DNA of 64,000 nucleotides, taken from positions 1,184,001 to 1,248,000 of the forward strand of contig NZ_CP157522.1 in assembly GCF_049075655.1 (NCBI RefSeq). The letters are read 5' to 3'. This document shows positions 3-63,999 of the stretch, piece after piece. The position numbers and the translations under genes are program-made. The notes beneath the pieces are model-generated. The model had not been told where the DNA came from, did no database searches, and saw only the letters and a program-made list of their open reading frames with translations. Numbering within the stretch: position 1 is the first letter of the stretch; the number at the start of each line of letters is the position of its first letter. The DNA is from Methanothermococcus sp. Ax23. Lineage in GTDB: Archaea > AGJL01 > Methanococci > Methanococcales > Methanococcaceae.

Positions 3-1274
3 ATTACTTACTTAATAAGCAAAGATGTAAAGATGACAAGAGATGTGCGAGCTCCTAAAAAGGGAGAAAAAGTATTTGGAAAAACACTTTGGGGAGTAGA
101 ATTGACAAAAGAGGCAGTTTCTGACATGGTTAAAGATGTTTTAATCGGAGCTCTAAACAAGGGAAATCTAACAATTGATGATTTGCATTTTGTTGTTAGA
201 AGTACTGGGGTTACAGCAGGATTTGCATCTCCTGAGGAAATAAGCAACATGATTATAGCACTTGCAGATGGCTGTTTAAAGGCAGGAATTCCACCATCAA
301 AAATGGCTCCCGCAATGACCAAAAATCAACTTCCGAAACCTTTTGATAACTATACATTAATGGATAAGATAATATTTGATGGTGCAGTTACTGGGGTTGT
401 TCCACCAACTGGCAAGGAAGTCGTGGCAAATGAAATGGAAGGTGAGCTCGTTACAGCAGGAATAAAAGTAGGTGCAAAATGGACAGATGTTGATTTCAGA
501 AATCCATGTATGAGTATTGATTTTGGAACTACGCTTGCAGGTAGGATTACAAATGATAATAAACCTTATGCAAATGTTGTTGGAAACCTGTGCGGTTTAG
601 CTGGGGCTATTGCCGATGCCATTGTTAGAGGTAGTGGATTAGTAAATAAAAACAAAGGAGCCGCATTAGATATTAAAAAGGAAAAGGGCAAGGTAGATAT
701 AAAACTTGCTGAAAAATATGCAGAAGAGGCACATAATTATATAAAAATATGTGAAGTTCCAAAAAATATGGAAAGATTTGGAACTGTTCCGGTAAATCCT
801 GAAAGTGCAGAGAAAGCGGGAACTGCATTAATAGGTTGTGATGTTGGGGAGAATGGAAGCGATATTCCTAAACTGGAAGAGATTGGAAGAAAAGTTATGG
901 AGGAAAGCAATATTCCAACACTGCTATATACTCTTGATATAGTATCGGCTGAAATAACCAAGAAACTCGTGCAGCTTGCAAACCAAAAAGGTCTTGTAAA
1001 TGAAAAAACTGCAATTGGAATAACTGGAAGGGCAGGTATCACAGGAGATAAGCCTAAATTGATAATCGAAAAGTTAGGGGAATTAAATATTTGGGAAAAA
1101 CCAGAGGAAAATATTGTGTTTGTTGAAGATGGTCTTGCATTAGGTTCCAGCATTATGGCAAGATGTATGAATTGCCTTGGAACGCCAAAAAATCCAATTG
1201 GAGGAAATAGAGGAGATAGATGTATATTAGGTGAAAGAAGAAAATGGCAGAAACAGAGAGGAATGATAAAATAA
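3..1274 (+). CDS. Methanogenesis marker 14 protein (5' end probably outside the window)
   Basis: Frame is open from position 3 (ITYLISKDVK-MTRDVRAPK). Motifs FVVRSTGVTAGF, SIDFGTTLAGR and GITGRAGITG match the actin-like marker-14 family. Confidence 0.85.
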   Translation: MTYLISKDVKMTRDVRAPKKGEKVFGKTLWGVELTKEAVSDMVKDVLIGALNKGNLTIDDLHFVVRSTGVTAGFASPEEISNMIIALADGCLKAGIPPSKMAPAMTKNQLPKPFDNYTLMDKIIFDGAVTGVVPPTGKEVVANEMEGELVTAGIKVGAKWTDVDFRNPCMSIDFGTTLAGRITNDNKPYANVVGNLCGLAGAIADAIVRGSGLVNKNKGAALDIKKEKGKVDIKLAEKYAEEAHNYIKICEVPKNMERFGTVPVNPESAEKAGTALIGCDVGENGSDIPKLEEIGRKVMEESNIPTLLYTLDIVSAEITKKLVQLANQKGLVNEKTAIGITGRAGITGDKPKLIIEKLGELNIWEKPEENIVFVEDGLALGSSIMARCMNCLGTPKNPIGGNRGDRCILGERRKWQKQRGMIK

Positions 1275-1354
1275 AAGATAATAAAAATAATAAAAATATT
1301 ATAAAAAATAAAAATACACTTATTAATTTTTTTATAAAATTAAAAAAATATATT

Positions 1355-2323
1355 TTAATCATGAATTCCTTTTTCCGTTATTCTGAATATTGCCTCAGCA
1401 TCTGGGAGATGAGGGGAATCGTATAATTTTGCAACCCTTTTATCTCCTTTTCCTTTCCTTAAAAAGAATCTAAATGTTGCAGCGTGTCCAACGATATGTC
1501 CTCCAATTGCCTGCTCAGCAGCTCCAAAGAATGCGTCAGGTCTTGCTGAAACTTGGTTTGTAATAAGAACAATACAGTTGTGGAGGTCAGCGAGCTTATT
1601 TAAAACTGCCATATGCCTTCCAAGTTTTTGCTGTCTCTCTGCAAGTTTTCCTCTTCCAGTATATTCATTTCTAAATGTGCTTGTCAGTGAATCTACAATT
1701 ACCAACTTTATGTTGTTTCCTGATTTTATGAGCTCTTCAATTTTTTCTGCAAAAAGCATCTGCATATCTGAATTGTATGCCCTAGCTACAAATGTATTAT
1801 CAAGCACCTTTTGGCCATCTATACCAAGAGCTTCGGCCATCTGAGTAATTCTTTCAGGCCTAAATGTTCCCTCTGTATCTATATAAACTGCTTTTGGATT
1901 TGATAATTCACCATCATTTATCCATTCATCATCTGCAAAAATTGTATCCTCACATTGAAGATTTACACATGCCTGATGCATGATTTGTGTTTTCCCACTT
2001 CCAAATATGCCTGCAAATTCAGTAATGGATTGACTTTCCAATCCACCGTTTAATATCCTATTTAATTCATCACTACCTGTGGATAATCTCCATACACTCT
2101 TTCTCTGGTTTAAAAGGTCTGCACCACTTTTAAAACCTAAATCACATAATTCTCTCGCTCCCATTATCATTTTGGCAGCTGCTTTCTCGCTAATTCCTTC
2201 AATGTCTGTGAGCTCGCCAATAGTTGCAGTAGCGATTTTCATAAAATCTATATATCCAGCTTCAATAAGTTTCTCAGCAGTTGAAGGTCCTACACCAGGT
2301 AAATCTGTTAAATTATCAGTCAT
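1355..2323 (-). CDS. radA: DNA repair and recombination protein RadA
   Basis: N-terminal HhH ([12 protein letters not shown]), Walker [32 protein letters not shown]; no intein. Confidence 0.98.
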
Positions 2324-2472
2324 ATATTCACCTATATTTATTAATCATAATTATTAACGAATATTATATCAATATATTTATATTTTGAGTGATAAATATT
2401 TAACACATCTCACTAAATATAGAATATATGACGAACTATTTATAATTTTTCACTATATAAATAGGTGCAAAA

Positions 2473-3027
2473 ATGATTAAAGATGACGATTTTTTTAGAA
2501 TGGACGGCGTTCCACTTACAAAAGAAGAAATAAGGGCGATAAGCACTGGTAAATTACAATTAAAACCTGATGATGTTGTTGTTGATATTGGATGCGGTAG
2601 TGGAGGAATGACTGTTGAAATAGCCAGAAGGTGCAAATTTGTCTATGCAATCGATAGCGTAGATGACGCCATAACCACTACAAAAAAGAATTTGGAAAGA
2701 TTTAATATTAAAAATTGTGAAGTAATAAAAGGGAATGCAGAGGATGTTTTATTTGATTTAGAATTTAACAAGGCATTTATTGGTGGAACAAAAAATATAG
2801 TTAATATTTTAAATATATTAAAAGAAAAAAATGTGAAACACATTGTGGCAAATACAATAGTGCTTGAAAATGCTGTGAATATAATAAATAATTTTAATAG
2901 TGATGATGATATATATGATGTAGATGTTGTAAATGTTTCTATTAGTTATGGGAAAAAAATAAATGCGGGACATATGATGATATCAAGAAATCCTATAACT
3001 ATAATAACGTGTAAAATGAAAAAATAA
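2473..3027 (+). CDS. cbiT: Cobalt-precorrin-6B C15-methyltransferase CbiT
   Basis: MIKDDDF..GVPLTKEEIRA N-terminus and SAM motif VDIGCGSGG. Confidence 0.92.
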   Translation: MIKDDDFFRMDGVPLTKEEIRAISTGKLQLKPDDVVVDIGCGSGGMTVEIARRCKFVYAIDSVDDAITTTKKNLERFNIKNCEVIKGNAEDVLFDLEFNKAFIGGTKNIVNILNILKEKNVKHIVANTIVLENAVNIINNFNSDDDIYDVDVVNVSISYGKKINAGHMMISRNPITIITCKMKK

Positions 3028-3149
3028 AAATAATTAAAAATAACTAATAGGTATGAAATAACAATTAAAACAAATTAAAAAATATGGTATAAAAATCCAA
3101 TCTCAATTTTTATTTTAATATATTTTTACAATATAAGGGGGAAGATTTT

Positions 3150-4811: not shown

Positions 4812-6845
4812 ATGGATAGAGGCATTTATGAATTTAGAGAATATTATAAAAATAAATTTCCATACTACAATATAAGAGCTCAGCAAATAAAGATGATGGA
4901 AACCATATTTAACAGCGTGAATAATAAAAAGAATTTGGTGGTTGAAGCACCAACAGGAGTTGGAAAAACCCTTTCATATCTCATTCCATCGCTATATTTT
5001 GCAGAGAAGGGAAAAAGAGTTATGGTACTTACTGAAACAATTGACCAACAGGAAAGAATTTTTGAAGATTTGAATTCACTGAAACACAATTTAAAAGTAT
5101 CCTTTATGATGGGAAAAGGCAATTTCTTCTGCAAATCAAAAGGAGATAAAGCGAATAGACTATACTGTCAATTAAATAAAAAATGTCCCCACAGACCAAA
5201 TAAAAAACCATACTGTGTATGTGGAACAAAAAAGGAACCCCTTACAATAGACGGGATTACAAAATATTTCTGTCCATTTTGTATATGCGATTATCAAAAA
5301 TCAAAAATTGAATGCCTAAATGCCGATATAGTTGTAATGAACAACAGCATCTACTACTACATAAAGGAAGAAATTGATGCAAAAAGAAACACTGATATAA
5401 TAATCTGCGATGAGGCTCATAAGCTTGAAGGGAGCATAAGAAATTCCGCAACCATATCTATAAATCCAGAGATAGCACTTAACAGACTGAGGTTTATGGC
5501 ATACCATTTTGCGCCAAATACTTTGAGGAAGTATTTTAAACGACTTAGCGATAAATACAACAGCAATAACAATTCAAATAATTTAAATATATATAATGAT
5601 GAATATAACGAAGGTTTTTGGAAGATTATTCACAATTATGTCTCAAATTATGCAAATATTGAGGATTGTAAAAATACATTGATATTTGATGGAGAACACA
5701 TTACTTCTTGGAAGTTAAAGGAGGATGTGGCAATATTGGGAACTCTTTTAGATGGATACTATCAAATATTGGATATAAAGAAAAAAATAGAATCTCTTGA
5801 AGAAAATAAAGAACTGGATAAAAAAGACCTTAAATTTAAGATAGATAATAAGGCACTGGTTCCTTTGGAATTTCAATTTATATTCAATAAAAAAATATCT
5901 GATATGCCACTTATGGAGTTTATAGACAATATAAAGAACTTAAAAACTACAAACAGCAACTTTGTAATATACAGGAATGGGAGCTCACTACTATGTGAGC
6001 CAGTCCTTGTTTCATCCTACCTTAAAAAACTTTATGGAGATGCAACAGTAATACATTGTTCAGCCACTATTGGAAATTTAAAGGTTCATGCCCTTAAAAC
6101 TGGAATGGGGGCGTCCAATACACTTGTTTTAGATAGTCCTTTTTCGGAGCTCAGGAAAAAAATCATCGCTCTAAGTGATGGAGAGGATATGAAGTATGAC
6201 GGTAGAAAAGAATTAAAACGAAAAAAGGCAAATGAAAATATATTTAAACTGTTAAAATCTGCAAAATGCAACAGTTTGGTATTGTTTAAAAGCTTTGAGG
6301 ATTTAAACAGTACATACAAATATTTAATAAATAACAGCAACAAATTGAATCAACAAATATATTGTTATGAGTCAGGCATGGATGGAAAGGAGGCTAAGGA
6401 ATTAAAGGAACGCTTTGAAAGAGACGGAGGAATACTTCTTGCAACAGGAAGATTTGCCGAAGGTGTGGATATACCGGGAGACGCCTTAACAATGGTGATA
6501 ATTGACAGCCTTCCTTTTCCAGTTCCAACACCCTTATTGAATCGTGAGCAGAAACTACTTGAAGAGGGATTGAAAAAGAAAAATGTAAGTAGTAAAAATG
6601 CCCATTGGACGGCGTTTTTAATGACTTCATTCCATATTATGTCAAGAACAATCGTTCAGATGATTGGTAGATTGATTAGAACTGAGGATGATTACGGCGT
6701 TGTGGTTGTTCAGGATAAGAGATTCAATGATTGGGTTGCCGAGGAGATGAAAAAAAGAGGATATTTAAAGGATAATTATGTATCTATGAATATAGACAAA
6801 GCAGTTGAATATATCCCTAAGTTTTTGAATGATTTTAAATCTTAG
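4812..6845 (+). CDS. DinG/XPD-family ATP-dependent DNA helicase
   Basis: EAPTGVGKT, DEAH, EGVD, SLPFP and QMIGRLIRTEDDYG motifs; Cys-rich insertion. Confidence 0.9.
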   Translation: MDRGIYEFREYYKNKFPYYNIRAQQIKMMETIFNSVNNKKNLVVEAPTGVGKTLSYLIPSLYFAEKGKRVMVLTETIDQQERIFEDLNSLKHNLKVSFMMGKGNFFCKSKGDKANRLYCQLNKKCPHRPNKKPYCVCGTKKEPLTIDGITKYFCPFCICDYQKSKIECLNADIVVMNNSIYYYIKEEIDAKRNTDIIICDEAHKLEGSIRNSATISINPEIALNRLRFMAYHFAPNTLRKYFKRLSDKYNSNNNSNNLNIYNDEYNEGFWKIIHNYVSNYANIEDCKNTLIFDGEHITSWKLKEDVAILGTLLDGYYQILDIKKKIESLEENKELDKKDLKFKIDNKALVPLEFQFIFNKKISDMPLMEFIDNIKNLKTTNSNFVIYRNGSSLLCEPVLVSSYLKKLYGDATVIHCSATIGNLKVHALKTGMGASNTLVLDSPFSELRKKIIALSDGEDMKYDGRKELKRKKANENIFKLLKSAKCNSLVLFKSFEDLNSTYKYLINNSNKLNQQIYCYESGMDGKEAKELKERFERDGGILLATGRFAEGVDIPGDALTMVIIDSLPFPVPTPLLNREQKLLEEGLKKKNVSSKNAHWTAFLMTSFHIMSRTIVQMIGRLIRTEDDYGVVVVQDKRFNDWVAEEMKKRGYLKDNYVSMNIDKAVEYIPKFLNDFKS

Positions 6846-11698: not shown

Positions 11699-14600
11699 AT
11701 GGTGCATTTATCCGAGATTCATTTAAAAAATTTCAAATCATTTAAAAACGCCAAATTAAAAATACCTTCTGGATTTACGGCAATATTGGGTCCCAACGGC
11801 TCAGGGAAGTCAAATATAATCGACGGAATATGTTTTGTTCTTGGAAAAACATCTGCAAAATCACTGAGGGCAGGAAAATTCAATGAGTTAATTACCTATC
11901 ACAAAAACAAAAGAGCAGATTATGCAGAAGTGATTTTATTTTTTGATAATAAGGATAGAAAGATTCCAATAGATTCTGACAAGGTTGGAATATCGAGAAA
12001 GGTAAAATTAAAGGGAGATAACAATTACTATTTAATATGGTATGAGAAGAAAGAAGGGAAGGAAGGTAAAGAAGAGAAAGAAGGAAAAGACAACAAACCA
12101 ATAGAAAAACGAAAAAAAATGAAAAAATCCCAAATAATAGACATATTCAACAGAATTTCACTAAGTGGGGATGGATTAAATATTATTCTTCAAGGAGACC
12201 TTATAAGATTAATTGAAATGTCCCCAAGGGAAAGAAGAAAGGTAATTGATGAAATAAGCGGGATTTCGGAATATGATGAAAAAAAGGAAAAATCACAAAA
12301 AGAATTGGAAAAAGCGAGGGAATATATTGAAAAAATAGACATAAGAATAAACGAAGTAAGGGCAAACCTTGAAAAACTTAAAAAAGAAAAGGATGATGCG
12401 GAGAAGTATCTAAAACTAAGCGAGGAGTTGAAAACTACAAAATACATACTTACTTCAAAAAAGGTAGAGCTCCTAAAAGTTGTGCTGGAAGATACTGAAA
12501 AAAATATAAATGCCCTAAAAGAATTAAAGGAAAAATTTCAGGGCGATATGCATAATATAGATGGTGAAATACTTAATTTAAAAAATAAGCTTGAAAATAT
12601 TATAAATGAATTAAAGGAAAAGGGAAACGAGGAAGTAATGGAGCTCCACAAGTCCATAAAGGAACTTGAATTAAATATTGAAAATGATAAGAAACAGCTT
12701 AACAATAGTTTGGATGATTTAAAGAATTCAAAAACTCAGTTAGAAATTAAAGAAAAGGAATTAAATGAAACTCGGGAAAAGATAGACAATATAAGAAAAG
12801 AAACGATGGAAAAGGAAAAGGAAATAAAAACCATCAAAGAAACCATAAAAAATTTAGAGGATGAAAGGAGCTCCTTAAAATCATCTGTGGAGAAAAGTGA
12901 AACTCACATAAACATACTCAAACAGCAAGAAAGAAAGCTTTCCGAGAGATTAAATGAATACCAAAAGGAACTGCACAAGTTAAGAACTGAATTAAACGAT
13001 GTAGATGGGAAAATAAATAAAAAATCCTTTGATTTAAAACGAAACAATGAAACTATTGAAAAACTGAAAGAAGAGCTTAATTTAATAAATAAAAATACCG
13101 ATGATACAAAAACTCTTTATAAGGAACTTGAAGATATTGTTGTGGAATTGGAATTTTCAAAGAAGATGTTGCAAAAATATGAGGATGAGAAGAAGGAGCT
13201 CCAAAGTAAAAGAGATAACTTATACTCAGAATACGCCAAGGAAAATGCAAAAATTAAGGCATTAAAGGAGATGGAAAATTTCAATGTAAATAGCACAATA
13301 AAAAGCATATTGGACGCTAAACTTCCCGGCGTTGTGGATATTGTTGGAAATCTCGGAAAAACAAAAAATGAGTATAAAACAGCAATTGAAATTGCAGGGG
13401 GAGGAAGGTTAAACCATATCGTAGTTAAGAGGATGGATGACGGAGCTCGGGCGATAGAGTATTTAAAAAGAAACAAACTTGGAAGGGCTACATTTTTACC
13501 TATGGACAGAATAAGGGGAAATGAACCACGCCACATAAATGAGGATGGAGTAATTGGAAGAGCCGTTGATTTGGTGGAATTTAAGGAGGAATATAGAAAC
13601 ATATTCAATTATGTGTTTGGAAACACCATTATTGTAAAGGATTTGGAAACTGCGAAGAATCTTTCAAAAAAGTATAAAGTTAGGTTCGTATCTCTTGAAG
13701 GGGATGTTGTGGAGGCTTCTGGTGCTATGGTTGGGGGAAGTATCAGGCGGTCTTCAAATATAAAGGTTGAAATAGACACTTCAAAGCTTGAAAAACTTGC
13801 AAATGAGTTAAAGGAAATAGAAAATAAACTAAACGGTGCTGATGGAATAAATAACAAGATTGACGAGATTAGCAGAAAGATAAACATATATTCCGCTAGG
13901 AAGATGGAATTAGAAAATAAATTGAGACTTATAAAAGAAAATGAAAATAGAAAAATGGATATTATTAAAAATAATAATACAAAAATAAAAGAAATTGAGC
14001 TGATAAATAAAAAACTTGGGGATGAACTGGAAGAACTGGAAGATTTAAAAGAAGAATTAGAGCATAAAATAAAAAATCTTGAAAATAAAATCGATGAGAC
14101 AATATCCACGAGGGAAAGGGTATTGAAGGAACTGAAATCATACGAAGACTCCACACTTATAAAAAGAATTAGGGATGTGGAGGGTGAAATAGAAACACTT
14201 AGTAAAAAGAAGGATGAACTGGAAAATGATACAAAACGAAATGCAGTTCTTATAAAAGAAGTTCTCATTCCTAAGATGGCAGAAACTACTGAGAAAATAA
14301 AAGAATTAAATGAAAAAATAGCCATGCTTCAAAAAAATATAGAGTTTTATAAGAACAATATTGAAAAAAATGTGCAAGTTTTGAGGGATAAGAAGGAGAG
14401 ATATGTAGAGCTCACCAAAGATTTGGAAGAGCTCACTGAGAAAAAGGCAATGTATGAAAAGCAAATAGAGGAACTAAACAATAACAAAAAAGAACTTATT
14501 GAAAAGATTGGCGGTATTAATAAAGAAATAAACACACTATTGATTGATAAGGCAAAATACGAAACTCGATTGGAAGATGAAGAGAAAAAACTTTATTTAT

Positions 14601-15289
14601 GTGAAAAAATCGAAGATGTGTCTGATGAATTATTTAATAAAATAAGTGCTATGGAAATAAATGAGCTGGAAAAGTATGTCATAAAACTTGAAAATAGTAT
14701 AAAAAGACTTGAACCAATAAACATGAGGGCTATTGAGGATTACGAGTATATAGAAGAAAGATATAAAGAGTTATTTGATAAAAGGAAAGAATATGAAGAA
14801 GATGAGAAAAAATATCTTCAATTAATCGAAGAAGTTGAGAAGAGGAAGAAAGAGGTATTTATGGAAGTATATGAAAAGATTGCCAAAAATTACGAGGAGA
14901 TATATAAGGACATTGGAGGAACTGGAAAATTGAGTTTAGAAAATCCTGAAAATCCATTTGAAGGAGGACTTTTAATCGATGCCTCACCGAGAAACAAAAG
15001 CCTTCAAAGTTTAGATGTGATGAGTGGTGGGGAAAAATCCTTAACTGCACTGGCATTCCTCTTTGCTATTCAGAGATTAACTCCTGCACCGTTCTATGTG
15101 CTTGATGAGGTTGATGCGGCACTTGATACAAAAAATGCGACGCTAATAGGTGATATGATTAAAAATGCGTCAAAGGAATCTCAATTTGTAGTAATATCTC
15201 ATAGAGAACAGATGATAAGTAAGGCGGATACACTTTATGGAGTTTATATGGAAGATGGATTAAGTAAGATTGTAGGTGTTAAGTTATAA
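11699..15289 (+). CDS. smc: Chromosome segregation protein SMC
   Basis: Walker A GPNGSGKS, long coiled coils, hinge GRATFLP, signature MSGGE, Walker B LDEVDAALD; ATG at 11699 follows a GGTGA RBS. Confidence 0.98.
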   Translation: MVHLSEIHLKNFKSFKNAKLKIPSGFTAILGPNGSGKSNIIDGICFVLGKTSAKSLRAGKFNELITYHKNKRADYAEVILFFDNKDRKIPIDSDKVGISRKVKLKGDNNYYLIWYEKKEGKEGKEEKEGKDNKPIEKRKKMKKSQIIDIFNRISLSGDGLNIILQGDLIRLIEMSPRERRKVIDEISGISEYDEKKEKSQKELEKAREYIEKIDIRINEVRANLEKLKKEKDDAEKYLKLSEELKTTKYILTSKKVELLKVVLEDTEKNINALKELKEKFQGDMHNIDGEILNLKNKLENIINELKEKGNEEVMELHKSIKELELNIENDKKQLNNSLDDLKNSKTQLEIKEKELNETREKIDNIRKETMEKEKEIKTIKETIKNLEDERSSLKSSVEKSETHINILKQQERKLSERLNEYQKELHKLRTELNDVDGKINKKSFDLKRNNETIEKLKEELNLINKNTDDTKTLYKELEDIVVELEFSKKMLQKYEDEKKELQSKRDNLYSEYAKENAKIKALKEMENFNVNSTIKSILDAKLPGVVDIVGNLGKTKNEYKTAIEIAGGGRLNHIVVKRMDDGARAIEYLKRNKLGRATFLPMDRIRGNEPRHINEDGVIGRAVDLVEFKEEYRNIFNYVFGNTIIVKDLETAKNLSKKYKVRFVSLEGDVVEASGAMVGGSIRRSSNIKVEIDTSKLEKLANELKEIENKLNGADGINNKIDEISRKINIYSARKMELENKLRLIKENENRKMDIIKNNNTKIKEIELINKKLGDELEELEDLKEELEHKIKNLENKIDETISTRERVLKELKSYEDSTLIKRIRDVEGEIETLSKKKDELENDTKRNAVLIKEVLIPKMAETTEKIKELNEKIAMLQKNIEFYKNNIEKNVQVLRDKKERYVELTKDLEELTEKKAMYEKQIEELNNNKKELIEKIGGINKEINTLLIDKAKYETRLEDEEKKLYLCEKIEDVSDELFNKISAMEINELEKYVIKLENSIKRLEPINMRAIEDYEYIEERYKELFDKRKEYEEDEKKYLQLIEEVEKRKKEVFMEVYEKIAKNYEEIYKDIGGTGKLSLENPENPFEGGLLIDASPRNKSLQSLDVMSGGEKSLTALAFLFAIQRLTPAPFYVLDEVDAALDTKNATLIGDMIKNASKESQFVVISHREQMISKADTLYGVYMEDGLSKIVGVKL

Positions 15290-15346
15290 GCAAAGATGCA
15301 ATTTAAATAAAAATTCTATTTTTAAAAATAGGTTGGTGGTGATAAT

Positions 15347-17449
15347 ATGAAAAAAGAGCAAATAACAAAAAATATTACAGTTCCAAATAAAAATATGGAA
15401 ATCCTTAAAAAATATTTTTCTCATTGTTTTGATAAAAATGGAAATTTTGATTTTGAAAAATTCAAAAAAGAACTTTCTAAAAATGAAATGGACTTTTCCA
15501 AAGAATCTTATGGTATGGATTGGTTGGGAAAATCTTATGCTCGACTTTTAGCAAGTGATGAAGCAAGGACTCTTTTAAAAGAAAATGAAGAATGGAATAA
15601 AAAAGAGGAACATAAAAATTCTGAAAATCTTCTTATTAAAGGGGATAATTTAGAAGTTTTAAAGCACTTATCAAATGCTTATTATGAAAAGATAAAGATG
15701 ATTTATATTGACCCGCCATATAATACTGGAAATGATGGTTTTGTTTATCAGGATGATAGAAAATTTACAGTTGAAGAATTTTCAAAGTTGGCAGGAGTTG
15801 ATGAGGAAAAGGCAAAAAGAATTTTGGATTTTGTAGATAGCAAAAGTAATTCCCATAGTGCATGGCTTACCTTTATGTATCCAAGATTATACATTGCAAG
15901 GCAACTTTTAAGAGATGATGGAGTTATTTTTGTAAGTATTGATGATAATGAGGTTGCACAATTAAGAATTTTAATGGATGAAATTTTTGGGGAAGAGAAT
16001 TTTGTTGGAATTATTACAAGAGTCACTAAAAAAGGAGGAAATAAAGGTGATTTCTTAAAACCAAAAAAAGACTTCATCATTACTTTTTTCAAAGATTTAA
16101 GTAAGGTTTCTAAAGAAAATTTTGGAAAGCAAATACTAATTGATAAAGACAAAATAGATTGGAAAGAGGAAATTTTTAACGGTAAAAAAAGAAGATTTAT
16201 AATTGGTGATATACCTTATAGAGAAAAACTAGAGGTAAGAAAAAATCAAAGGTATTATATAGAAGCCCCAGATGGAACACTTTTAATTCCCAAAGGAAAT
16301 GTTTTTCCAAAAGAAAAAAAAGATGGAGCAACGGTTGAACCGCAATCTGAAGAAGATAAATGCTGGACTTGGTCGGTAGATAGATATCTTGAAGAAAAGA
16401 AAAAAGGTAGATTCTATTTTTTAAAAAGTGATAAATCACCTTTTTTAGATGAAAATGGAAAACAAGCAAAATGGACTGTATATAAAAAAATATTTGAAGA
16501 TGAACTAACGACAAAAACAGAAGTTTTAACAGATTTACTCGTAGATAACAAATTTGAAAACTCAAAAGGAACTAAGGAGTTAGACCTTTTAAAAATTCCG
16601 TTTAGCAATCCTAAGCCAACAAATTTAATTAAATACTTGATAGATATATCTTGTAATAAAAACGACTTAATCCTCGACTTCTTCGCAGGTTCAGGAACAA
16701 CAGGAGATGCTGTAATGCAACTTAACGCCGAAGATGGAGGAAACAGAAAATATATTTTAGTTCAACTTGATGAACCTATTGACCCAAAGAAAAATAAAAC
16801 CGCTTACGATTTTGTGAAAAATGAATTAAAAGTTGAAAATCCTACAATTTTTGAAATTACAAAAGAAAGATTAATTAGAGCAGGAAAGAAAATAAAAGAA
16901 GAAATAAATAAATCCATTGAAGAAAAAGAAAACGAGATAAAAAAACTTAAAAGTCAATTAACAGACAATAGCGAAAAAATAGAAAAACTTAAACAAGAAA
17001 TTGAAAACTTAAAAAATCAAGATTTAGGTTTTAAAATATTTGAAACAATTCCAATTTGGGAAGATTATAATTTTGAAGCAGAAAAATTTGACCCACAATT
17101 AAAACTTTTTGACGAAAGCAAACTAACCGAAGAAGATTTAAAAACACTTCTTACAACATGGAAAACTTATGACGGCATACCTTTAACAAAAAACCTAAAT
17201 GAAATAGATTTAGACGGATACAAAGGATATTATTATGAAAATAAACTTTATTTAATACATAAAGGATTTACTACAAAAAACCTAAAAAAATTATTAACTG
17301 AAATTGATGAGAATGAAAATTTCAACCCTACAACAATCATATCTTTTGGATATAATTTTGAAAGTAAATCTTTAAGAGAAATCGCAGAAAATGTAAAAAA
17401 TTACGCTAACAAGAAACAAATAAATATTGATTTTATAATTAGATACTAA
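15347..17449 (+). CDS. mod: Type III restriction-modification methyltransferase (Mod), EcoP15I-like
   Basis: IKGDNLEVLK, catalytic DPPY, SAM-binding DFFAGSGTT in beta-class order with an intervening TRD; adjacent to Res. Confidence 0.95.
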   Translation: MKKEQITKNITVPNKNMEILKKYFSHCFDKNGNFDFEKFKKELSKNEMDFSKESYGMDWLGKSYARLLASDEARTLLKENEEWNKKEEHKNSENLLIKGDNLEVLKHLSNAYYEKIKMIYIDPPYNTGNDGFVYQDDRKFTVEEFSKLAGVDEEKAKRILDFVDSKSNSHSAWLTFMYPRLYIARQLLRDDGVIFVSIDDNEVAQLRILMDEIFGEENFVGIITRVTKKGGNKGDFLKPKKDFIITFFKDLSKVSKENFGKQILIDKDKIDWKEEIFNGKKRRFIIGDIPYREKLEVRKNQRYYIEAPDGTLLIPKGNVFPKEKKDGATVEPQSEEDKCWTWSVDRYLEEKKKGRFYFLKSDKSPFLDENGKQAKWTVYKKIFEDELTTKTEVLTDLLVDNKFENSKGTKELDLLKIPFSNPKPTNLIKYLIDISCNKNDLILDFFAGSGTTGDAVMQLNAEDGGNRKYILVQLDEPIDPKKNKTAYDFVKNELKVENPTIFEITKERLIRAGKKIKEEINKSIEEKENEIKKLKSQLTDNSEKIEKLKQEIENLKNQDLGFKIFETIPIWEDYNFEAEKFDPQLKLFDESKLTEEDLKTLLTTWKTYDGIPLTKNLNEIDLDGYKGYYYENKLYLIHKGFTTKNLKKLLTEIDENENFNPTTIISFGYNFESKSLREIAENVKNYANKKQINIDFIIRY

Positions 17450-17481
17450 CATTTAGATAGATTTACAGGGAGCGGATTAAA

Positions 17482-20361: not shown

Positions 20362-20516
20362 TTTCCACCATGCTTAATATTTATTATTTCTCTCTAAGGA
20401 GCTCATAGCAACATCATAATTATAAAAATTAATGCTATCTTAATCATAAGTGAAAAGAAAAATAATATATAATAATAATAAAAAAAGGAAATGGTATAAA
20501 AATTAACGGTGAAAAC

Positions 20517-21866
20517 ATGGCAGTACATCCAATTGATTTTAGATATGGTTCAAAGGAAATGAAAGAAGTTTGGGAAGAAGAAACAAAACTTCAAAAAATG
20601 CTTGAAGTTGAGGCAGCTATCGCAAGAGCTCAGGGTGAGCTCGGCATAATTCCAAAGGAAGCAGCAGAAGAAATAAATAGAAAGGCATCAACAAAATATG
20701 TAAAACTGGAAAGAGCAAAGGAAATTGAAAGAGAAACAAGACACGATATTGTAGCTATGGTAAAGGCATTTGCAGAAGTATGCGAAGGAAATGCAGGAGA
20801 ATACATACATTTCGGTGCAACATCCAATGATATTGTTGATACATCCCAATCACTCCAATTTAAAGATGCCATTGCCATATTATTGGATAAATTAAAAACA
20901 TTGAGGGATGAGTTAATTAAAAAGGCAGAGGAGCACAAATATACAGTATGTATTGGAAGAACACACGGACAGCATGCTATCCCCACAACATACGGCATGA
21001 AGTTTGCACTATGGGCAGCTGAAATTCAGAGGCATATCGATAGATTGGAAGCATGCAAAGAAAGATTATGCGTTTCAATGATTACAGGTGCCGTTGGAAC
21101 AATGGCGGCTCTTGGAAAGGACGGTATAAAAATCCACAAAAGAGTTGGAGAGATACTTGGATTAAATCCAGTTTTAATATCAAATCAGGTAATTCAAAGG
21201 GACAGGCATGCTGAATTTATGGCAATTCTTGCATTAATTGCCCAAACTCTTAACAAAATAGGTATCACAGTAAGAAGTATGCAGAGAACGGAAATAAAAG
21301 AACTTGAAGAAGAATTCGATGCATCAAAACAGACAGGTTCATCAACAATGCCACATAAAAGAAATCCAATTACATTTGAACAGATTTGCGGGCTTTCAAG
21401 AGTGATTAAAGCAAATGCTCTTGCTGAATTTGACAACATACCACTATGGGAAGAGAGGGATTTAACAAATTCATCTCCTGAAAGGTGTTTATTCCCTGAA
21501 TCCTGCGTTCTCTTAGACCATATTTTGAACCTTGCAATTAAAGGTATGAGAAAATTAACTGTAAATATTGAGAATGTAAATAGAAACCTTGAATTAACAA
21601 AAGGACTTATAATGGCAGAAAGGGCAATGATTACTCTTGCTAAAAAAGGTATGGGAAGGCAGACTGCTCATGAAGTTGTAAGGAAGTGTGCAATGAAGGC
21701 TCATGATGAAAACAGACATTTAAAAGAAGTTTTAAGAGAGAATGAAGATGTAATGAAGTATCTATCTGAGAATGAGCTCGACGAATTATTTGACTACAAA
21801 ACATACATTGGTCTTGCTCCTGAAATAGTTGATGAAGTAATTACCACATTGAAAAACAAGGAATAA
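20517..21866 (+). CDS. purB: Adenylosuccinate lyase
   Basis: HFGATSND, GRTHGQHA and GSSTMPHKRNP signature. Confidence 0.97.
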   Translation: MAVHPIDFRYGSKEMKEVWEEETKLQKMLEVEAAIARAQGELGIIPKEAAEEINRKASTKYVKLERAKEIERETRHDIVAMVKAFAEVCEGNAGEYIHFGATSNDIVDTSQSLQFKDAIAILLDKLKTLRDELIKKAEEHKYTVCIGRTHGQHAIPTTYGMKFALWAAEIQRHIDRLEACKERLCVSMITGAVGTMAALGKDGIKIHKRVGEILGLNPVLISNQVIQRDRHAEFMAILALIAQTLNKIGITVRSMQRTEIKELEEEFDASKQTGSSTMPHKRNPITFEQICGLSRVIKANALAEFDNIPLWEERDLTNSSPERCLFPESCVLLDHILNLAIKGMRKLTVNIENVNRNLELTKGLIMAERAMITLAKKGMGRQTAHEVVRKCAMKAHDENRHLKEVLRENEDVMKYLSENELDELFDYKTYIGLAPEIVDEVITTLKNKE

Positions 21867-22040: not shown

Positions 22041-22556
22041 ATGAGATGCTTTTTAGCAATTGAATTAAATGAGGATATAAAAGAAAAACTTGAAGAATTA
22101 AAATCCCACTTTAAAATAAATGGTATCAAATTGGTTGAAAAAGAAAATCTCCACATAACAGTTAAATTTTTAGGAGATATTGACGAAGAAATGGTGGAAA
22201 AAATAAAAAATTTAGATTTATCCATTAAACCAGTTAAAAGCGATGTAAAATACATGGGCGTTTTTCCAAATGAAAATTACATAAGGGTAATATGGATAGG
22301 TGCCACCAATCTAATACCCATTTTTAAAGAAATTGACAAAAAACTTTTAGAGCTCGGCTTTAAAAAAGAAAAGGATTATGTTCCGCACATAACCATTGGA
22401 AGAGTTAAATTTACCAAAGATAAAAAACTGCTAAAAAATAAAATTGATAAGTATAAACATGTAGAGCTCGGCACACTTGAAGTTAAAAATATTGTTTTAA
22501 TGAAAAGCGAATTAACAAGAGAAGGTCCAATTTACGAAGTAATTAAAAGATGGTAA
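22041..22556 (+). CDS. thpR: RNA 2',3'-cyclic phosphodiesterase (2H family)
   Basis: MRCFLAIEL N-terminus and two HxT motifs (LHITVKFLG, PHITIGR). Confidence 0.92.
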   Translation: MRCFLAIELNEDIKEKLEELKSHFKINGIKLVEKENLHITVKFLGDIDEEMVEKIKNLDLSIKPVKSDVKYMGVFPNENYIRVIWIGATNLIPIFKEIDKKLLELGFKKEKDYVPHITIGRVKFTKDKKLLKNKIDKYKHVELGTLEVKNIVLMKSELTREGPIYEVIKRW

Positions 22557-24356: not shown

Positions 24357-24475
24357 TATTCCACCAGCAAAATTAAAAATAAAAATAGAATTAAATAAAA
24401 TAAAAATAATAAACTATTAACTCAAAACATAAAAAATTAGATTAAAATATCATGCTATATTTAATTATTTATTAA

Positions 24476-27502: not shown

Positions 27503-27630
27503 TAATTTATACGATAAGAGTAATAAGATAGTGAGTGAGGAAAATAAAAAATAAAACAATAAACAAAATAAATAAAACAGAACATAAAAAAATAAAAAAA
27601 TTAATGTAAAAATGTAAAAAAGGTGAATAT

Positions 27631-28985: not shown

Positions 28986-29129
28986 ATTATCACATCAATA
29001 TACTATAAATATAACTAAAAAATATAACTATTTATGTTATATATTATCCAATTTTAATCATTATTTTCATTTTCATTATTTAATGTATATTATAATTTAA
29101 ATAACCCAAATAATTTAAAGGTGTAGAGT

Positions 29130-30814: not shown

Positions 30815-30885
30815 GAGTAAATAAAGGAAATAACCTTTATTTTTTTATATTTTTATTAGTATATTATTTATTTTATCATAATAGG

Positions 30886-32493: not shown

Positions 32494-32709
32494 TTACTTT
32501 TTTATTACAATTTTAAATCCACTTTCAGTTTCTTCGGCAGATACAACAGTATGACCATGTTCTTCAACAAATCTTGTAATATTTTCAAGTGCTGGTTTAT
32601 AGTCCCCTATTACTGTTAATTCCTCTCCATCACCCATTGAATCAAGAGCTTTTTTTGTTTTCAATACTGGGATTGGACATACTGTTCCACTAACGTCGAG
32701 CTCCATCAT
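32494..32709 (-). CDS. TusA-family sulfur carrier protein
   Basis: LDVSGTVCPIPV motif, 71 aa. Confidence 0.9.
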   Translation of the reverse strand: MMELDVSGTVCPIPVLKTKKALDSMGDGEELTVIGDYKPALENITRFVEEHGHTVVSAEETESGFKIVIKK

Positions 32710-48998: not shown

Positions 48999-49009
48999 TC
49001 GGAGCTCCT
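48999..49009. repeat. Direct repeat TCGGAGCTCCT, left of the TA cassette
   Basis: Identical 11-mer at 49657-49667. Confidence 0.75.
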
Positions 49010-49656: not shown

Positions 49657-49667
49657 TCGGAGCTCCT
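49657..49667. repeat. Direct repeat TCGGAGCTCCT, right of the TA cassette
   Basis: Identical 11-mer at 48999-49009. Confidence 0.75.
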
Positions 49668-52459: not shown

Positions 52460-53839
52460 TTATTGCTTGTTATCTTCTATCTTTTTAAATTTATCACAGG
52501 CATTTTCAGCTGCAAGAGCAAGCGGGTCAATTACCATTGAAACTGGCGGAGCATAGCAGAACTCCATATTTGCCAGTTCATCACAAGTCATATTTTTCAC
52601 AATACCTATGGATACTGCATCCACTCTTTCGGCAACTCTTTCTCCCCCCACAATCTGACATCCTACAATATTTTTGTTCATATCACATATTAATTTAACT
52701 TCTATTAACTTTCCACCTGGATAGTATCTTGCCCTTGTAAGTGCCTTTGACTTTCCAACTACAACTTCAAGTCTGTTTTGATGAGCTCCGAGCTCACTCA
52801 TGCCTGTTCCAGCCATTTCAATATCTCCAATTTTTGATACCATGGCATTTAAAACTGGGTTGAATTTAGCTTCAATACCCACGATATTTTTTCCTGCAAC
52901 TTTACCCTGTCTTACAGCTGTTGTTCCAAATGGTGATAAGGTAATCTGCTTTGTGATTAAATCCACAACTTCCACACAGTCTCCAACTGCGTATATGTTT
53001 GGAATTGAAGTTTGCATTTTTTCATTTACCTTTATAGCCCATCTTCCTATTTCACAACCTGCCTTTTTTGCCAGTTCTATGTTTGGTCTGACACCTGTTG
53101 CCATTATAACCATGTCACACTCGTAGAGCTCCCCATCTATTACCGCACCATTTACCTTACCTTCTTCATCCCCAACAATCTTACCTAATGGTTTTTCAAG
53201 TATAAACTTAATACCAACATCTTCTTCCAAATACTTCATAACAATTTTAGCCATATCTATATCCAGAGCTCTCGGTAATATTTGGGGTGCCATTTCAACA
53301 ACTATTACATCAAGACCGAGCTCCTTCAATGCGTATGCTGTTTCAAGTCCAATTGCCCCAGCGCCTGCAACTATTGCACTTTTTGAATTTTCCGCATACT
53401 CTTTTATCTTTATACCATCTTCAATTGTCCTTAGTTTAAAGACGCCTTTTAAATCCACCCCTTCAATCGGTGGAACAAATGGTGAGCCCCCAGTAGCCAA
53501 AACAAGGTAATCATAAGTTAATTCTATTTCATTGTTTTCTTTATCTTTATATATTATTTTATTATTCTCTGAATCCACATCCAAAACTTCTGACTCTGTG
53601 ATTACATCGATATGCCTATCTTTTTTGTATTCTTCGGGAGTGTGCATTATTATATCTTCAAATGAAGGTATTTCATTACATATTACATAGGGAATAGCAC
53701 ATGGTGAATATGCTATATATTTATCCTTTGTAATCACTACTATTTCCATTTCTTTATTATATCTTCTTATAGTTGAAGCGGTGGTTAATCCTGCGGCTCC
53801 ACTTCCAATTACAACAACTCTCATTTCTTCACCTGACAT
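52460..53839 (-). CDS. FAD-dependent NADH oxidase / CoA-disulfide reductase family
   Basis: GSGAAG, YSPCAIP redox Cys, GAGAIG, IYAVGDC, CYAPP. Confidence 0.9.
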   Translation of the reverse strand: MSGEEMRVVVIGSGAAGLTTASTIRRYNKEMEIVVITKDKYIAYSPCAIPYVICNEIPSFEDIIMHTPEEYKKDRHIDVITESEVLDVDSENNKIIYKDKENNEIELTYDYLVLATGGSPFVPPIEGVDLKGVFKLRTIEDGIKIKEYAENSKSAIVAGAGAIGLETAYALKELGLDVIVVEMAPQILPRALDIDMAKIVMKYLEEDVGIKFILEKPLGKIVGDEEGKVNGAVIDGELYECDMVIMATGVRPNIELAKKAGCEIGRWAIKVNEKMQTSIPNIYAVGDCVEVVDLITKQITLSPFGTTAVRQGKVAGKNIVGIEAKFNPVLNAMVSKIGDIEMAGTGMSELGAHQNRLEVVVGKSKALTRARYYPGGKLIEVKLICDMNKNIVGCQIVGGERVAERVDAVSIGIVKNMTCDELANMEFCYAPPVSMVIDPLALAAENACDKFKKIEDNKQ

Positions 53840-62247: not shown

Positions 62248-63078
62248 ATTTGCATCACCACCTTATTTTATTTTTTATTACTCTTTTAAATCAAGTCCCA
62301 TTTTTTCTGCCAGTTTTACAATTATTTCATTATCTGGTATGGCATCTCCTGGAGCTCCTACTATCTTATTTATCTTTTGAGTCTTCCCCTCTGTATTTGT
62401 AAAGGTTCCATCCTTTTCAGCCCAGCATGATGCTGGAAGAACAACATTAGAAAGATTACATGTTTCATTCATTATTATACTTTGAGTAATCAAAAAATCA
62501 AGAGATTTTAATACATCCCCATTACACATTGCGGGATTTTCTCCCATTATGTATAAGCATTTAACATTTTTGATTAATTCAAGTAGTTCGTCCTTATTCA
62601 ATGGTGGAAGTAGTTTCATTGCACCCATTGTGTTGCAATGTTTTAAAACTGGAAGTAATTTACATTTTGTTTTTTCTGAGATACTATAAACCAAATCTAT
62701 ATCTTCTTGGTTTGTCAATTTATTAAATATTATTATGGAGTTCTCATCAAGTTTTTTTAGGATTTCTTCATCCATGTTCTTCAAAAATTCAGAGAAATTG
62801 TTTATTTTTATAAACTTATCAGAATTTAATCTAATAATGTCTTTTTCTTCATAATTTACAGAAACTATTTCAGCCCCATTTTCCTTTGCTTTAATTACCC
62901 TCCTTCCAATTAAAGAACTCTCCCCAAACACATCACTAAGAATTAAAATAAATTTGCTATTTTCAATATCATCAAAAGATGCTATACTCTTATCCAAATC
63001 AATTTTTGGAGAACCACATATGCAAACTCCAATGTTTTTTACGATAAACCGCCGAGAAAGCCAACGATTTTAATCGTT

Positions 63079-63115
63079 ATACAAAACATAGTTTTGTAAA
63101 ATCTCTTACGAGATT
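63079..63115. repeat. 37-bp double-hairpin insert nested in the IS left-end hairpin
   Basis: TACAAAAC-ATA-GTTTTGTA and AATCTC-TTAC-GAGATT; removal restores CCAACGATTTTAATCGTTGG. Confidence 0.7.
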
Positions 63116-63325
63116 GGATGAGAGGCGGACATTATAATTAGTCAGTAGTAAAACATAAATATTTGAAGTTTCATAGTGAATAATGCTACCAGTCCAAGTA
63201 TCTATGGGTAGGGTTAGTAAAAACTCTACCGCTGGTAGTGGTTGGAAGTGCATAGCGTAGCCCTGAACCCATTAATGGGTAGGGGTAGTGGGCTTGGCCA
63301 CCCTTGTAGGGTTAAACCCTGCTAA

Positions 63326-63380
63326 AATTAGACGAAATCACTTCGTGATTTCGTTGCTCGCTTACTACCGTAAGCGAGAA
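63326..63380. repeat. Double-hairpin dispersed repeat, copy B
   Basis: AATTAG-ACGAAATCAC-TTC-GTGATTTCGT-TG-CTCGCTTAC-TACC-GTAAGCGAG; homologous to the reverse complement of 30762-30814. Confidence 0.8.
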
Positions 63381-63828
63381 CCCCACGACTTCAGTCGTGG
63401 GAGTAGGTCAGACCAAGTGCATCTGCAAATTTTTTCAAGGCGTAATTGTCTTCATTCGTGCATATTCCAGAACCTATAATACCAATTTCATCTGGTTTGT
63501 AGGACTTTAATTTATTAGATACCAAATTCAGTGCATCATCCCAGCTTGATTCAACAAATTTTCCATTTTTCTTTATTAATGGTGTCTTTAATCTCTTTTC
63601 ATCATTTACAATTTTATAACATTCTCTTCCATTGTTGCAGTTTTTTCCTTCATTTATGGGATGCCTCTTGTTTGGATAGGTTCCTATGACTTTTCCATCT
63701 TTTGTTATTAAATCTACTCCACAACCAACACTGCATCCGGGACATATCGTGTGCATAATCTTCATTGTTTCACCGTCTTTTTCTTTTTTTGGTTTTATAT
63801 TCCGAGCTCCCACTCCCATTATCAATAA

Positions 63829-63999
63829 TCACATTGCAACTTTGGGATATGTTTTCACTATTTGATGGGAAGTATGGGTGGTTCCAATATGAGCTCCTTT
63901 TGTTAAGTTTATAATATTCACCATAATTTGAAATGCGTTATCAAGTATTGATTGCGAAACTTCCTTTGAAACCTTATTATCCTTTTGATGCATGCTACA
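63829..63999 (-). CDS. Possible 3' end of an unidentified gene running off the window
   Basis: Open frame ...SKEVSQSILDNAFQIMVNIINLTKGAHIGTTHTSHQIVKTYPKVAM*; no recognisable motif. Confidence 0.35.
   Translation of the reverse strand, partial: CSMHQKDNKVSKEVSQSILDNAFQIMVNIINLTKGAHIGTTHTSHQIVKTYPKVAM

Follow-up and report, generated by a model that had tools for sequence, protein, structure and literature searches.

The window analyzed here is a 64,000-nucleotide stretch of the Methanothermococcus sp. Ax23 genome (G000:C1:1184001-1248000; G000 comprises 1,662,948 + 7,732 bp at 31.9% G+C), and its subject is the palindromic hexamer GAGCTC, the SacI-type word, which is scattered along its whole length. 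The window holds exactly 96 copies (~1.5 per kb), with one at every coordinate quoted in the original prediction, which had counted about 96 by hand, whereas 100 dinucleotide-preserving shuffles of the same DNA yielded a mean of 4.34 (standard deviation 2.41, maximum 13) and none of the 100 reached 96. On a map of G000 built from simple calls of open reading frames (1609 ORFs of at least 80 amino acids (aa), 86.6% of the chromosome), phases 0, 1 and 2 hold 50, 36 and 6 of the copies and non-coding DNA the other 4, with sites on both strands; the earlier statement that all three phases and both strands are used holds for each of its examples (444 in phase 0, 148 in phase 1 and 5981 in phase 2). 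Three of the four sites that it had called intergenic (20399, 49002 and 49660) are indeed non-coding, but 63804 falls within an ORF call (63391-63825, minus strand), the start of which may be over-extended. The sites that introduce the array are given below; the other genomes named there and throughout belong to a comparison set of 40, the whole phylum-level group in the collection, with G040 as the outgroup genome.

49..63896, no strand assigned: dispersed array of 96 GAGCTC (count against 4.34 expected)
148..153, plus strand: phase-1 example, xGA-GCT-Cxx, Gly/Arg-Ala-Leu/Pro/His/Gln/Arg (ORF map)
444..449, plus strand: phase-0 example, GAG-CTC = Glu-Leu (ORF map)
5981..5986, plus strand: phase-2 example, xxG-AGC-TCx, x-Ser-Ser (ORF map)
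20399..20404, no strand assigned: non-coding GAGCTC (ORF map)
32698..32703, no strand assigned: non-coding GAGCTC, also GAGCTC in G003, G012 and G010 (ORF map and alignment)
49002..49007, no strand assigned: non-coding GAGCTC (ORF map)
49660..49665, no strand assigned: non-coding GAGCTC (ORF map)
52783..52795, minus strand: two GAGCTC at a distance of 7 bp within a single gene, the first in phase 1 and the second in phase 0 (ORF map)

The whole G000 genome contains 2089 copies of GAGCTC, or 1.25 per kb. Markov models predict 124.7 copies at order 0, 106.0 at order 1 (observed/expected ratio, O/E, of 19.7), 159.7 at order 2 (13.1), 428.6 at order 3 (4.87) and 1305.6 at order 4 (1.60), and the last of these controls is circular because the GAGCT counts on which it draws come largely from GAGCTC itself. 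The estimate of ~4 expected sites and a ~20-fold excess made from the window alone is thus matched both by the shuffles and by the genome-wide order-1 value. No other G000 hexamer with at least 100 occurrences reaches so high an order-1 O/E; next come GGAGCT/AGCTCC (6.14), words that overlap GAGCTC itself, and the second palindromic hexamer is ATATAT at 1.81. When every NAGCTN word is arranged in a 4x4 table, the G..C cell holds 2085 occurrences and the remaining 15 cells hold 126-325 (odds ratio 18), and C follows GAGCT in 81% of cases as opposed to 19% where AGCT is preceded by A, C or T. Only the G..C cell being inflated, the unit is therefore the complete hexamer. The tetramer AGCT itself has an O/E of 1.17, with 41% of all its occurrences sitting within GAGCTC, and words one step away show no strong depletion genome-wide (GAGTTC/GAACTC 466 against 385 expected, O/E 1.21; GAGCTG 1.20; GAGCTA 0.91). 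The flanks of the sites carry at most 0.21 bit per position, with the commonest octamer, GGAGCTCC, accounting for 331 of 2085 sites, and with flanks so nearly uninformative GAGCTC does not stand at the center of any longer repeat or of a mobile element. An interspersed repeat of the repetitive extragenic palindromic (REP) or miniature inverted-repeat transposable element type was rejected on these flanks, on the 94% of sites that lie in ORFs and on the near-geometric spacing described below. The second, plasmid-like contig of 7.7 kb carries 4 copies, an order-1 O/E of 17.6.

The excess is spread over every coding context. Within the ORFs of G000 we found 1100 sites in phase 0 (GAG-CTC, Glu-Leu), 629 in phase 1 (xGA-GCT-Cxx) and 225 in phase 2 (xxG-AGC-TCx), so the sites are not confined to one reading frame, and they divide into 966 and 988 by gene strand. 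Outside ORFs there are 131, as opposed to 4.34 expected from the non-coding composition, a 30-fold enrichment. As a coding null, synonymous codons were shuffled within each gene in 30 replicates that kept the proteins and the per-gene codon usage, a null already raised by the codons of the motif itself; it gave a mean of 192 coding sites and a maximum of 228, against 1955 seen (10-fold). The enrichment had been said to be refutable by dicodon and 5-mer controls, and neither refutes it in a meaningful way, the drop to 1.6-fold under the 5-mer control being the circular one. Glu-Leu dipeptides are written GAG-CTC in 1100 of 3962 instances (28%) against 66.8 expected, and these codon pairs make up 56% of the coding sites. 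As had been claimed, the sites force GC-rich codons into the genome, 1100 of its 2874 CTC codons standing in GAG-CTC. The synonymous neighbors one transition away from GAG-CTC are the most depleted (GAA-CTC 0.30, GAG-CTT 0.31) and the transversion neighbors less so (GAG-CTA 0.56, GAG-CTG 0.84), as would be expected of a directional pressure that draws on ordinary mutations. Taken together, the use of all phases, the 30-fold non-coding enrichment, the enriched plasmid-like contig and the 10-fold excess over a protein-keeping shuffle bear out the earlier view of a DNA-level phenomenon similar to the cyanobacterial palindrome HIP1 and not a product of amino acid or codon usage. That the enrichment exists and belongs to the hexamer as such is almost beyond doubt, and GAGCTC is a true highly iterated palindrome, a complete 6-bp word in all resident DNA.

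Along the chromosome the sites are spread evenly, with 49-78 per full 50-kb bin and counts per 5 kb near Poisson (mean 6.27, variance 7.60); about nine 5-kb stretches are empty, and several of these hold ORFs without a counterpart in G005, a relative poor in GAGCTC. Spacing is near geometric (median 532 against 552 expected), with fewer spacings below 15 bp than expected (10 against 23.3) and moderately more of 20-49 bp (117 against 75.0). A spectral test on 1-kb bins with 1000 permutations, simpler than the method of PMC5861425, detected no periodicity at 5-200 kb (p=0.28). Intergenic densities are alike for tandem, convergent and divergent gene arrangements (0.66, 0.50 and 0.45 per kb), and the non-coding sites of G000 show no preferred distance to gene starts and no promoter or terminator preference. 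Core genes and ORFs without a G005 counterpart are similarly enriched (O/E of 18.2 and 16.7). The proteome has also been affected: over 1111 orthologue alignments G000 has 2739 Glu-Leu dipeptides against 2316 in G005 (18% more), with Glu and Leu each ~5% rarer, and the G000 to G005 ratio is 0.74 for Leu-Glu, 1.23 for Ser-Ser, 2.4 for Gly-Ala-Pro and 2.0 for Gly-Ala-His. Protein sequences are thus affected by the force behind GAGCTC.

Enrichment is restricted to 5 of the 40 genomes and is patchy among them: G000 has 2089 copies, G012 2070, G010 1645, G013 1515 and G003 1321, and the other 35 have 4-229. The outgroup G040 has 490, but also 340 of a reversed control word. A tree built from 8609 aligned columns with GAGCTC sites masked reads (G005, G013, (G010, (G012, (G000, G003)))). 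Three depleted genomes, G008, G002 and G007, with 9, 16 and 4 copies, are 74-79% identical to G000, and the enriched G010 and G013 are 74-81% identical to it over the same segments; enriched and depleted genomes therefore stand at the same distance. The seven genomes of genus g3 have ordinary counts of 66-103. In the whole genome of G005 there are 14 copies, and palindromes containing AGCT are avoided as a class (order-1 O/E of 0.03 for AAGCTT, 0.08 for GAGCTC and 0.17 for TAGCTA), a pattern of the kind that restriction by an AluI-type system would leave.

To follow individual sites, we used ~60 kb of orthologous alignment from the region of the window, the one region from which all gain, loss and conservation counts come. 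G012 keeps 66 of 80 G000 sites, against an identical-hexamer background of 43%; G003 keeps 53 of 83 (background 57%), G010 15 of 69 (24%), G013 16 of 60 (21%) and G005 0 of 61. At conserved Glu-Leu positions, GAG-CTC is unchanged in G012 in 31 of 34 cases and other codon pairs in 37 of 80 (p=3e-6), whereas in G003 the figures are 27 of 38 and 60 of 89 (p=0.84). For G010 these positions comprise 7 shared sites, 20 found only in G000, 5 only in G010 and 50 in neither (odds ratio 3.5, p=0.05), and for G013 they comprise 7, 13, 3 and 49 in the same order (odds ratio 8.8, p=0.004). Conservation of the kind known from HIP1 is thus found in G012, is not found in G003 and is modestly above chance in G010 and G013. 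Almost all G003 sites (53 of 57) also occur in G000, which has 30 sites that G003 is without; 20 of those 30 occur in G012, and several also in G013. Inferred ancestral sites have been lost in 20 of 64 cases in G003 against 3 of 47 in G000 (p=0.002), and private sites number 1 in G003, 7-10 in G000 and 10 in G012. With an identity of 0.76 at 4-fold sites between G000 and G003, G003 has lost roughly as many sites as would disappear through neutral decay, and we take these data to mean that G000 and G012 maintain their sites whereas maintenance is switched off in G003. The origin may be a single old onset followed by accumulation and secondary loss, or several onsets.

Gained sites were examined where one of two genomes carries the word (comparisons with G012, G010 and G013). 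Mismatch within the hexamer is 0.38-0.50, exceeding what background divergence predicts given at least one difference; it is 0.19-0.42 in the adjoining ±3 bp, and the background of 0.10-0.23 is regained within ~10 bp. Around the gained sites of these 60 kb there are no imported divergent tracts, the flanks being at background divergence. The clearest gains and losses of the window are as follows.

20626..20642, plus strand: pair of GAGCTC 11 bp apart, AGA-GCT-CAG-GGT-GAG-CTC, common to G012 (alignment)
22350..22355, no strand assigned: G000-private GAGCTC; GAACTG in G003, GAATTG in G012, GAACTT in G010 (alignment)
24957..24962, no strand assigned: loss example, GAGCTC in G000, G012 and G013, GAGTTC in G003 (alignment)
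33875..33880, no strand assigned: GAGCTC against GAATTA in G003, 3 of 6 positions differing, flanks nearly identical (alignment)
34403..34408, no strand assigned: GAGCTC against AACATT in G003, 4 of 6 differing, Asn-Ile to Glu-Leu (alignment)
37108..37113, no strand assigned: GAGCTC against ATGCCC in G003, 3 of 6 differing; ATGCTC in G005 (alignment)
38855..38860, no strand assigned: loss example, GAGCTC in G000, G012 and G013, AAGCTC in G003 (alignment)

At 20626 the change from AAG-GCA to AGA-GCT replaces Lys, which G003 and G005 have as AAG, by Arg, and at the pair 20626/20637 G003 reads AGGCAC and GAACTT. The site at 22350 required two substitutions since the split from G003, on a branch of ~0.05 substitutions per site. 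The gains are directional, local, multi-substitution and motif-centered, and some of them change amino acids.

Several known kinds of over-represented word can be set beside GAGCTC. Two papers (PMC5861425, PMC4390886) describe HIP1 (GCGATCGC) as, like GAGCTC, a short palindrome at ~1 per kb, 15-300-fold over-represented, which lies in genes in every frame and between genes and has sites conserved above background, with patchy, variant or absent words in some relatives; the conservation of HIP1 between genomes is reported in the first of these (PMC5861425). HIP1 reportedly raises transformation efficiency and has been proposed as an uptake sequence (PMC13756078); the function of the cyanobacterial highly iterated palindromes is only now, three decades on, being tied to transformation (PMC13756078). 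The two words are unrelated in sequence, HIP1 being an octamer of cyanobacteria and GAGCTC a hexamer of an archaeal lineage. HIP1 has a co-occurring orphan methyltransferase, whereas none was found for GAGCTC among the families PF00145, PF01555, PF02384 and PF02086, and HIP1 has a 10-90-kb periodicity, whereas GAGCTC has none by our simpler spectral test. GAGCTC therefore has the abundance, the frame-independence and the conservation of a highly iterated palindrome and lacks the methyltransferase co-occurrence and the periodicity.

The uptake signal sequences (USS) of Pasteurellaceae and the DNA uptake sequences (DUS) of Neisseriaceae occur at ~1 per kb, are specific to their lineages, lie in coding DNA in tolerated frames and mark self DNA, and they are thought to accumulate by uptake bias plus recombination. 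GAGCTC resembles them in density, in its presence in coding DNA and in its lineage specificity, but they are 9-12 bp long, asymmetric and read by bacterial competence machinery, whereas GAGCTC is a palindrome of 6 bp and no ComEC or DprA was found in the enriched genomes. Very-short-patch repair by Vsr/Dcm over-represents CCWGG in Escherichia coli, an effect that is small compared with a 20-fold excess. Such repair bias can raise a methylated palindrome and lower its deamination product, but it needs a cytosine-5 methyltransferase. The original prediction had offered methyltransferase-directed, Vsr-like repair as one source of the sites, and this suggestion is not supported: no PF00145 enzyme scores above the cut-off in G000, G003, G010 or G012, and the deamination word GAGTTC/GAACTC, which should be depleted, has an O/E of 1.21; in Glu-Leu context GAA-CTC is indeed at 0.30, but GAG-CTT is at 0.31. 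Chi, read by RecBCD/AddAB, is like GAGCTC a short over-represented word, and it marks self DNA for a helicase-nuclease; a parallel exists in the UvrD-like helicase that stands beside a PD-(D/E)xK nuclease in G000, G010 and G013. Chi is, however, asymmetric and strand-biased (PMC5861425) and far less enriched, whereas GAGCTC is its own reverse complement, for which no orientation is possible, and the UvrD-adjacent nuclease occurs in G000, G010, G013 and G032 only, with none found in G012 or G003. The targets of restriction-modification systems are also 6-bp palindromes, and GAGCTC is scarce in G005, G008, G002 and G007 (14, 9, 16 and 4 copies). Such targets are avoided, however, whereas GAGCTC is enriched 20-fold, and the words avoided in G000 are different ones (CTGCAG, GTGCAC, GTTAAC, CTCGAG and those containing GATC). 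Judged by the features tested, GAGCTC does not appear to belong to any of these families, be it the uptake sequences, Chi, the Vsr-driven words or REP. One paper on HIP1 (PMC5861425) mentions USS/DUS-type uptake sequences in its introduction. The original prediction knew of no description in Methanococcales, and our literature search likewise found none for over-representation of GAGCTC in these or any other archaea; many subscription papers and supplementary tables were beyond its reach, so an earlier mention is possible.

The force to be explained acts on the full hexamer and on all DNA, works against synonymous drift and through multiple substitutions, even where these change amino acids, and is lineage-specific and losable, which fits a DNA-reading factor that is probably dimeric. 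Our preferred reading, drawn by analogy and held at a probability of about 40%, is that GAGCTC is the binding site of a symmetric dimeric DNA factor that favors site-bearing "self" DNA. A lineage-specific directional force would write GAGCTC through ordinary point substitutions, and a symmetric, sequence-specific factor acting on double-stranded DNA would read it. Site-bearing DNA would gain an advantage as "self", for instance during uptake, during recombination, during gene conversion (whether among the genome copies of a cell or from one cell to another) or by being spared degradation. Alleles nearer to GAGCTC would then spread by molecular drive, selection or both, and existing sites would be held, a mode of action now proposed for HIP1 and the bacterial uptake sequences as well. 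Three points of this reading are inferred: GAGCTC is read by a protein, exchange or self-recognition of DNA is where the benefit arises, and the determinant is a gene open to loss or transfer. The role in DNA exchange or self-recognition is suggested by the analogy with HIP1 and the uptake sequences, and it is preferred because an architectural role fits poorly with the enrichment of a small replicon and with close relatives that lack the word. That recent arrivals are poor in sites, as is the type III island described below, also speaks for it. A bolder form, which we consider possible though doubtful, is that GAGCTC is the first archaeal "self-DNA" signal word, through which a transferable and losable factor biases exchange, conversion or protection and has rewritten ~2000 positions, amino acids included, in up to three separate lineages, having been switched off in G003.

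A number of points weigh against the self-DNA reading. A 6-bp word is much less specific than uptake sequences of 9-12 bp. G010 and G013 share few G000 sites, near the hexamer background, and have most of theirs at different positions, and the evolutionary counts rest on a single 60-kb region. Conservation looks alike under selection and under an ongoing conversion bias, since a site that has mutated still offers a near-cognate substrate. Genus g3, which we guess to hold the naturally transformable Methanococcus maripaludis, would if so have competence without a need for GAGCTC. No protein that reads GAGCTC was found, every candidate tested failing the phyletic pattern. In profile searches over 41 genomes, G040 included, ComEC matched 0 of 41, and DprA matched the non-enriched G019 alone, apart from a hit in G040 that fell short of the family cut-off, so these bacterial competence families do not track the enrichment; this evidence is weak, since archaea reportedly have no ComEC homologue (PMC10133366). 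Archaeal DNA uptake relies on other parts, of which little beyond pili and a TctA-like protein is known (PMC10133366).

The word could instead be a modification site, the target of a methyltransferase, as is HIP1, or of a DpdA-like transglycosylase, with the marked word serving repair, replication or self-marking and its density being selected. We regard this as unlikely. HIP1 does co-occur with orphan methyltransferases (PMC4390886), and a methyltransferase co-occurring with the enrichment had been proposed here as well, but none turned up: family scans revealed no PF00145, PF01555, PF02384 or PF02086 enzyme common to the site-maintaining genomes G000, G010, G012 and G013. PF00145 cytosine-5 methyltransferases are absent above the Pfam cut-off from genus g1, including G000, G003, G010 and G012, and G013 has one. 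Scans of G012, G010, G013, G003 and G005 found just one PF01555 enzyme in G010, where PF02384 DNA methyltransferases are missing, none of the PF01555 family in G012, and D12-class enzymes only in G012 and G003. The methyltransferases of G000 all stand in cassettes whose distributions differ from that of the enrichment. A 300-aa PF01555 enzyme (C1:1437541-1438443) has counterparts in G003, where a stop codon interrupts it, and in seven non-enriched genomes of family f2 but in no others, and the type III Mod/Res pair of the window is specific to G000; both were rejected as the cause. An Eco57I/TaqI_C-type methyltransferase (C1:353653-357512) was rejected too, being found only in G000 and G013 of the 41 genomes. 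It consists of a 1069-aa enzyme and a 216-aa neighbor without a Pfam match, has its second copy at G013:C1:16235-19939, and is 77% and 89% identical between the two genomes against a median protein identity of ~71%, so that it looks like a horizontally exchanged restriction-modification pair. A search with RE_SacI (PF09566) gave no match in the 41 genomes, but 14 control genomes were equally silent, so this negative carries no weight. Targets of modification systems are, moreover, usually avoided or neutral.

For a modifying enzyme of the transglycosylase kind there is a four-gene cluster in G000 (C1:1537329-1542521). It encodes a DpdA-like protein (PADLOC DpdA, E=1e-123) along with a DUF6884/DpdC-like protein, a UvrD-like helicase and a PD-(D/E)xK nuclease, and a DDE transposase comes after it. 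The cluster is itself rich in sites (18 GAGCTC in 5.2 kb). DpdA and the nuclease occur together only in G000, G010, G013 and G032 of the 41 genomes, that is, in 3 of 5 enriched genomes against 1 of 36 others (Fisher p=0.004, uncorrected for kinship), and G003, which is losing its sites, has no such cluster. Against this, G012 (99% complete) is without the cluster yet keeps its sites as well as G000 and has 10 private ones, and G032 has the cluster with an ordinary GAGCTC count of 130. Given that G012 maintains its sites, the cluster is not required for maintenance; its association with the enrichment is imperfect, and it is a suggestive lead. That the DpdA-like transglycosylase with its helicase and nuclease is the reader, through 7-deazaguanine modification or Chi-like control of the nuclease, strikes us as very improbable.

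In its own right the cluster suggests that this archaeon modifies its DNA with 7-deazaguanine. Another TGT/DpdA-like match, a weak one (C1:813616-814239, E=2.8e-5), sits in a GAGCTC-free stretch of ORFs without G005 counterparts (809.5-816 kb), possibly an integrated element. Six kb from the cluster, C1:1527725-1531046 encodes by eye a McrC/McrB-like pair, of the modification-dependent restriction type, for which G013 has counterparts at 65% and 51% identity and G005 gives no match.

A search for the determinant by gene content found 418 of the 1609 G000 ORFs absent or poor in the whole genome of G005, and 69 of these are matched well somewhere in the first 800 kb of G013; 51 + 12 of these 69 candidates were inspected and are by eye mostly metabolic or mobile genes. 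A membrane PLD-type nuclease (C1:1153260-1153850) was rejected, since it is present in 15 of 41 genomes, non-enriched ones included.

Biased repair or conversion without any function is another account that we would not favor and hold to be unlikely: a sequence-specific nuclease or glycosylase, acting on mismatches, would convert near-cognate words and restore mutated sites, and GAGCTC would be a neutral by-product. The depletion of the one-transition neighbors to 0.30-0.31, the narrow reach of the gains, which stay within the hexamer ±3 bp and bring no divergent flanks with them, the near-equal O/E of core genes (18.2) and ORFs without a G005 counterpart (16.7), and the pairing in G003 of high loss with few gains, as if one activity did both, are all consistent with it. 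However, many gains needed 2-4 substitutions, amino acid changes among them, which a single-mismatch bias explains poorly; the one-off words are not strongly depleted genome-wide (1.21, 1.20 and 0.91); four of the five enriched genomes have no cytosine-5 methyltransferase above the cut-off; and no candidate enzyme was found, although the Vsr family (PF03852) itself was not searched for. A site of chromosome architecture, bound by a nucleoid- or condensin-type protein, would agree with the even density of 49-78 sites per 50-kb bin, with the near-Poisson counts per 5 kb (mean 6.27, variance 7.60) and with the precedent of HIP1, for which such a role has been proposed on grounds of periodicity (PMC5861425); with no periodicity here at 5-200 kb (p=0.28), with a small plasmid-like contig that is enriched too and with close relatives that do without GAGCTC or avoid it, we think this quite unlikely. 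A compositional or coding artefact, be it codon, codon-pair or oligonucleotide bias, a hidden repeat or a fault of assembly, could point to the order-4 O/E of only 1.6 and to the 56% of coding sites that are Glu-Leu codon pairs, but it is ruled out for practical purposes by the circularity of the 5-mer control, the use of all phases, the 30-fold non-coding enrichment, the protein-keeping shuffle (192 against 1955), the flanks almost without information and the same enrichment in four other independently assembled genomes.

The remaining features concern restriction, mobile DNA and intergenic sequences. One further stretch of the window stands apart from the array.

14435..19719, plus strand: longest GAGCTC-free stretch of the window, with the type III restriction-modification pair (site list)

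The pair consists of Mod (15347-17449, 700 aa, an N6_N4_Mtase domain and an EcoP15I C-terminal domain) and Res (17482-20361, 959 aa, ResIII and an endonuclease domain). Beyond window position 15289 the island has no match in G003, G012, G010, G013 or G005, it carries 1 GAGCTC in 5 kb, and it is probably a recent insertion. In G000 as a whole, palindromes of the form GTNNAC are avoided (GTGCAC 7, GTTAAC 22, GTCGAC 4 and GTATAC 23 sites), as are those of the form CTNNAG (CTGCAG 18, CTTAAG 20, CTCGAG 8 and CTATAG 29 sites) and hexamers containing GATC, CTAG or GTAC, which points to several restriction specificities. Family-wide, CTGCAG is avoided only in G000 (18), G003 (21), G010 (28) and G012 (24), all of them GAGCTC-enriched, with G013 the only enriched genome outside this set; the remaining 19 genomes of the family have 168-606 copies, and the first 800 kb of G013 hold 3.7 times as many as expected. 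This avoidance, too, has no common methyltransferase to account for it. Two near-identical ORFs of G000 (C1:47322-48638 and 1510598-1511905) are by eye of the TnpB/IS200-IS605 type and have no counterpart in G005, and the same is true of a set at 144.9-147.2 kb that resembles cas4-cas1-cas2-cas6 by eye. Within the window, an intergenic stretch of ~50 nucleotides (30763-30815) contains a pair of short hairpins (cacttac-gaa-gtaagtg and cgaaaacc-gtaa-ggttttcg), recurs at many places in G003, G012, G010 and G013 at 82-97% identity and is not a tRNA; the short intergenic stretches at ~24369-24486, 27541-27633, 28997-29100 and 32035-32124 behave in the same way.

Highly iterated palindromes have so far been studied almost only in cyanobacteria. 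An independent archaeal case built on another word, with no matching methyltransferase and no long-range periodicity, would make the phenomenon a general one that is not bound to the Dam/DmtC methylation system. The family also offers natural contrasts, with enriched, ordinary and depleted genomes at the same distance and one genome, G003, that has stopped maintaining its sites, and the determinant should therefore be findable by a complete comparison of gene content. For annotation and for the study of evolution in these archaea, GAGCTC-free stretches flag recently acquired DNA, and protein sequences have been visibly changed.

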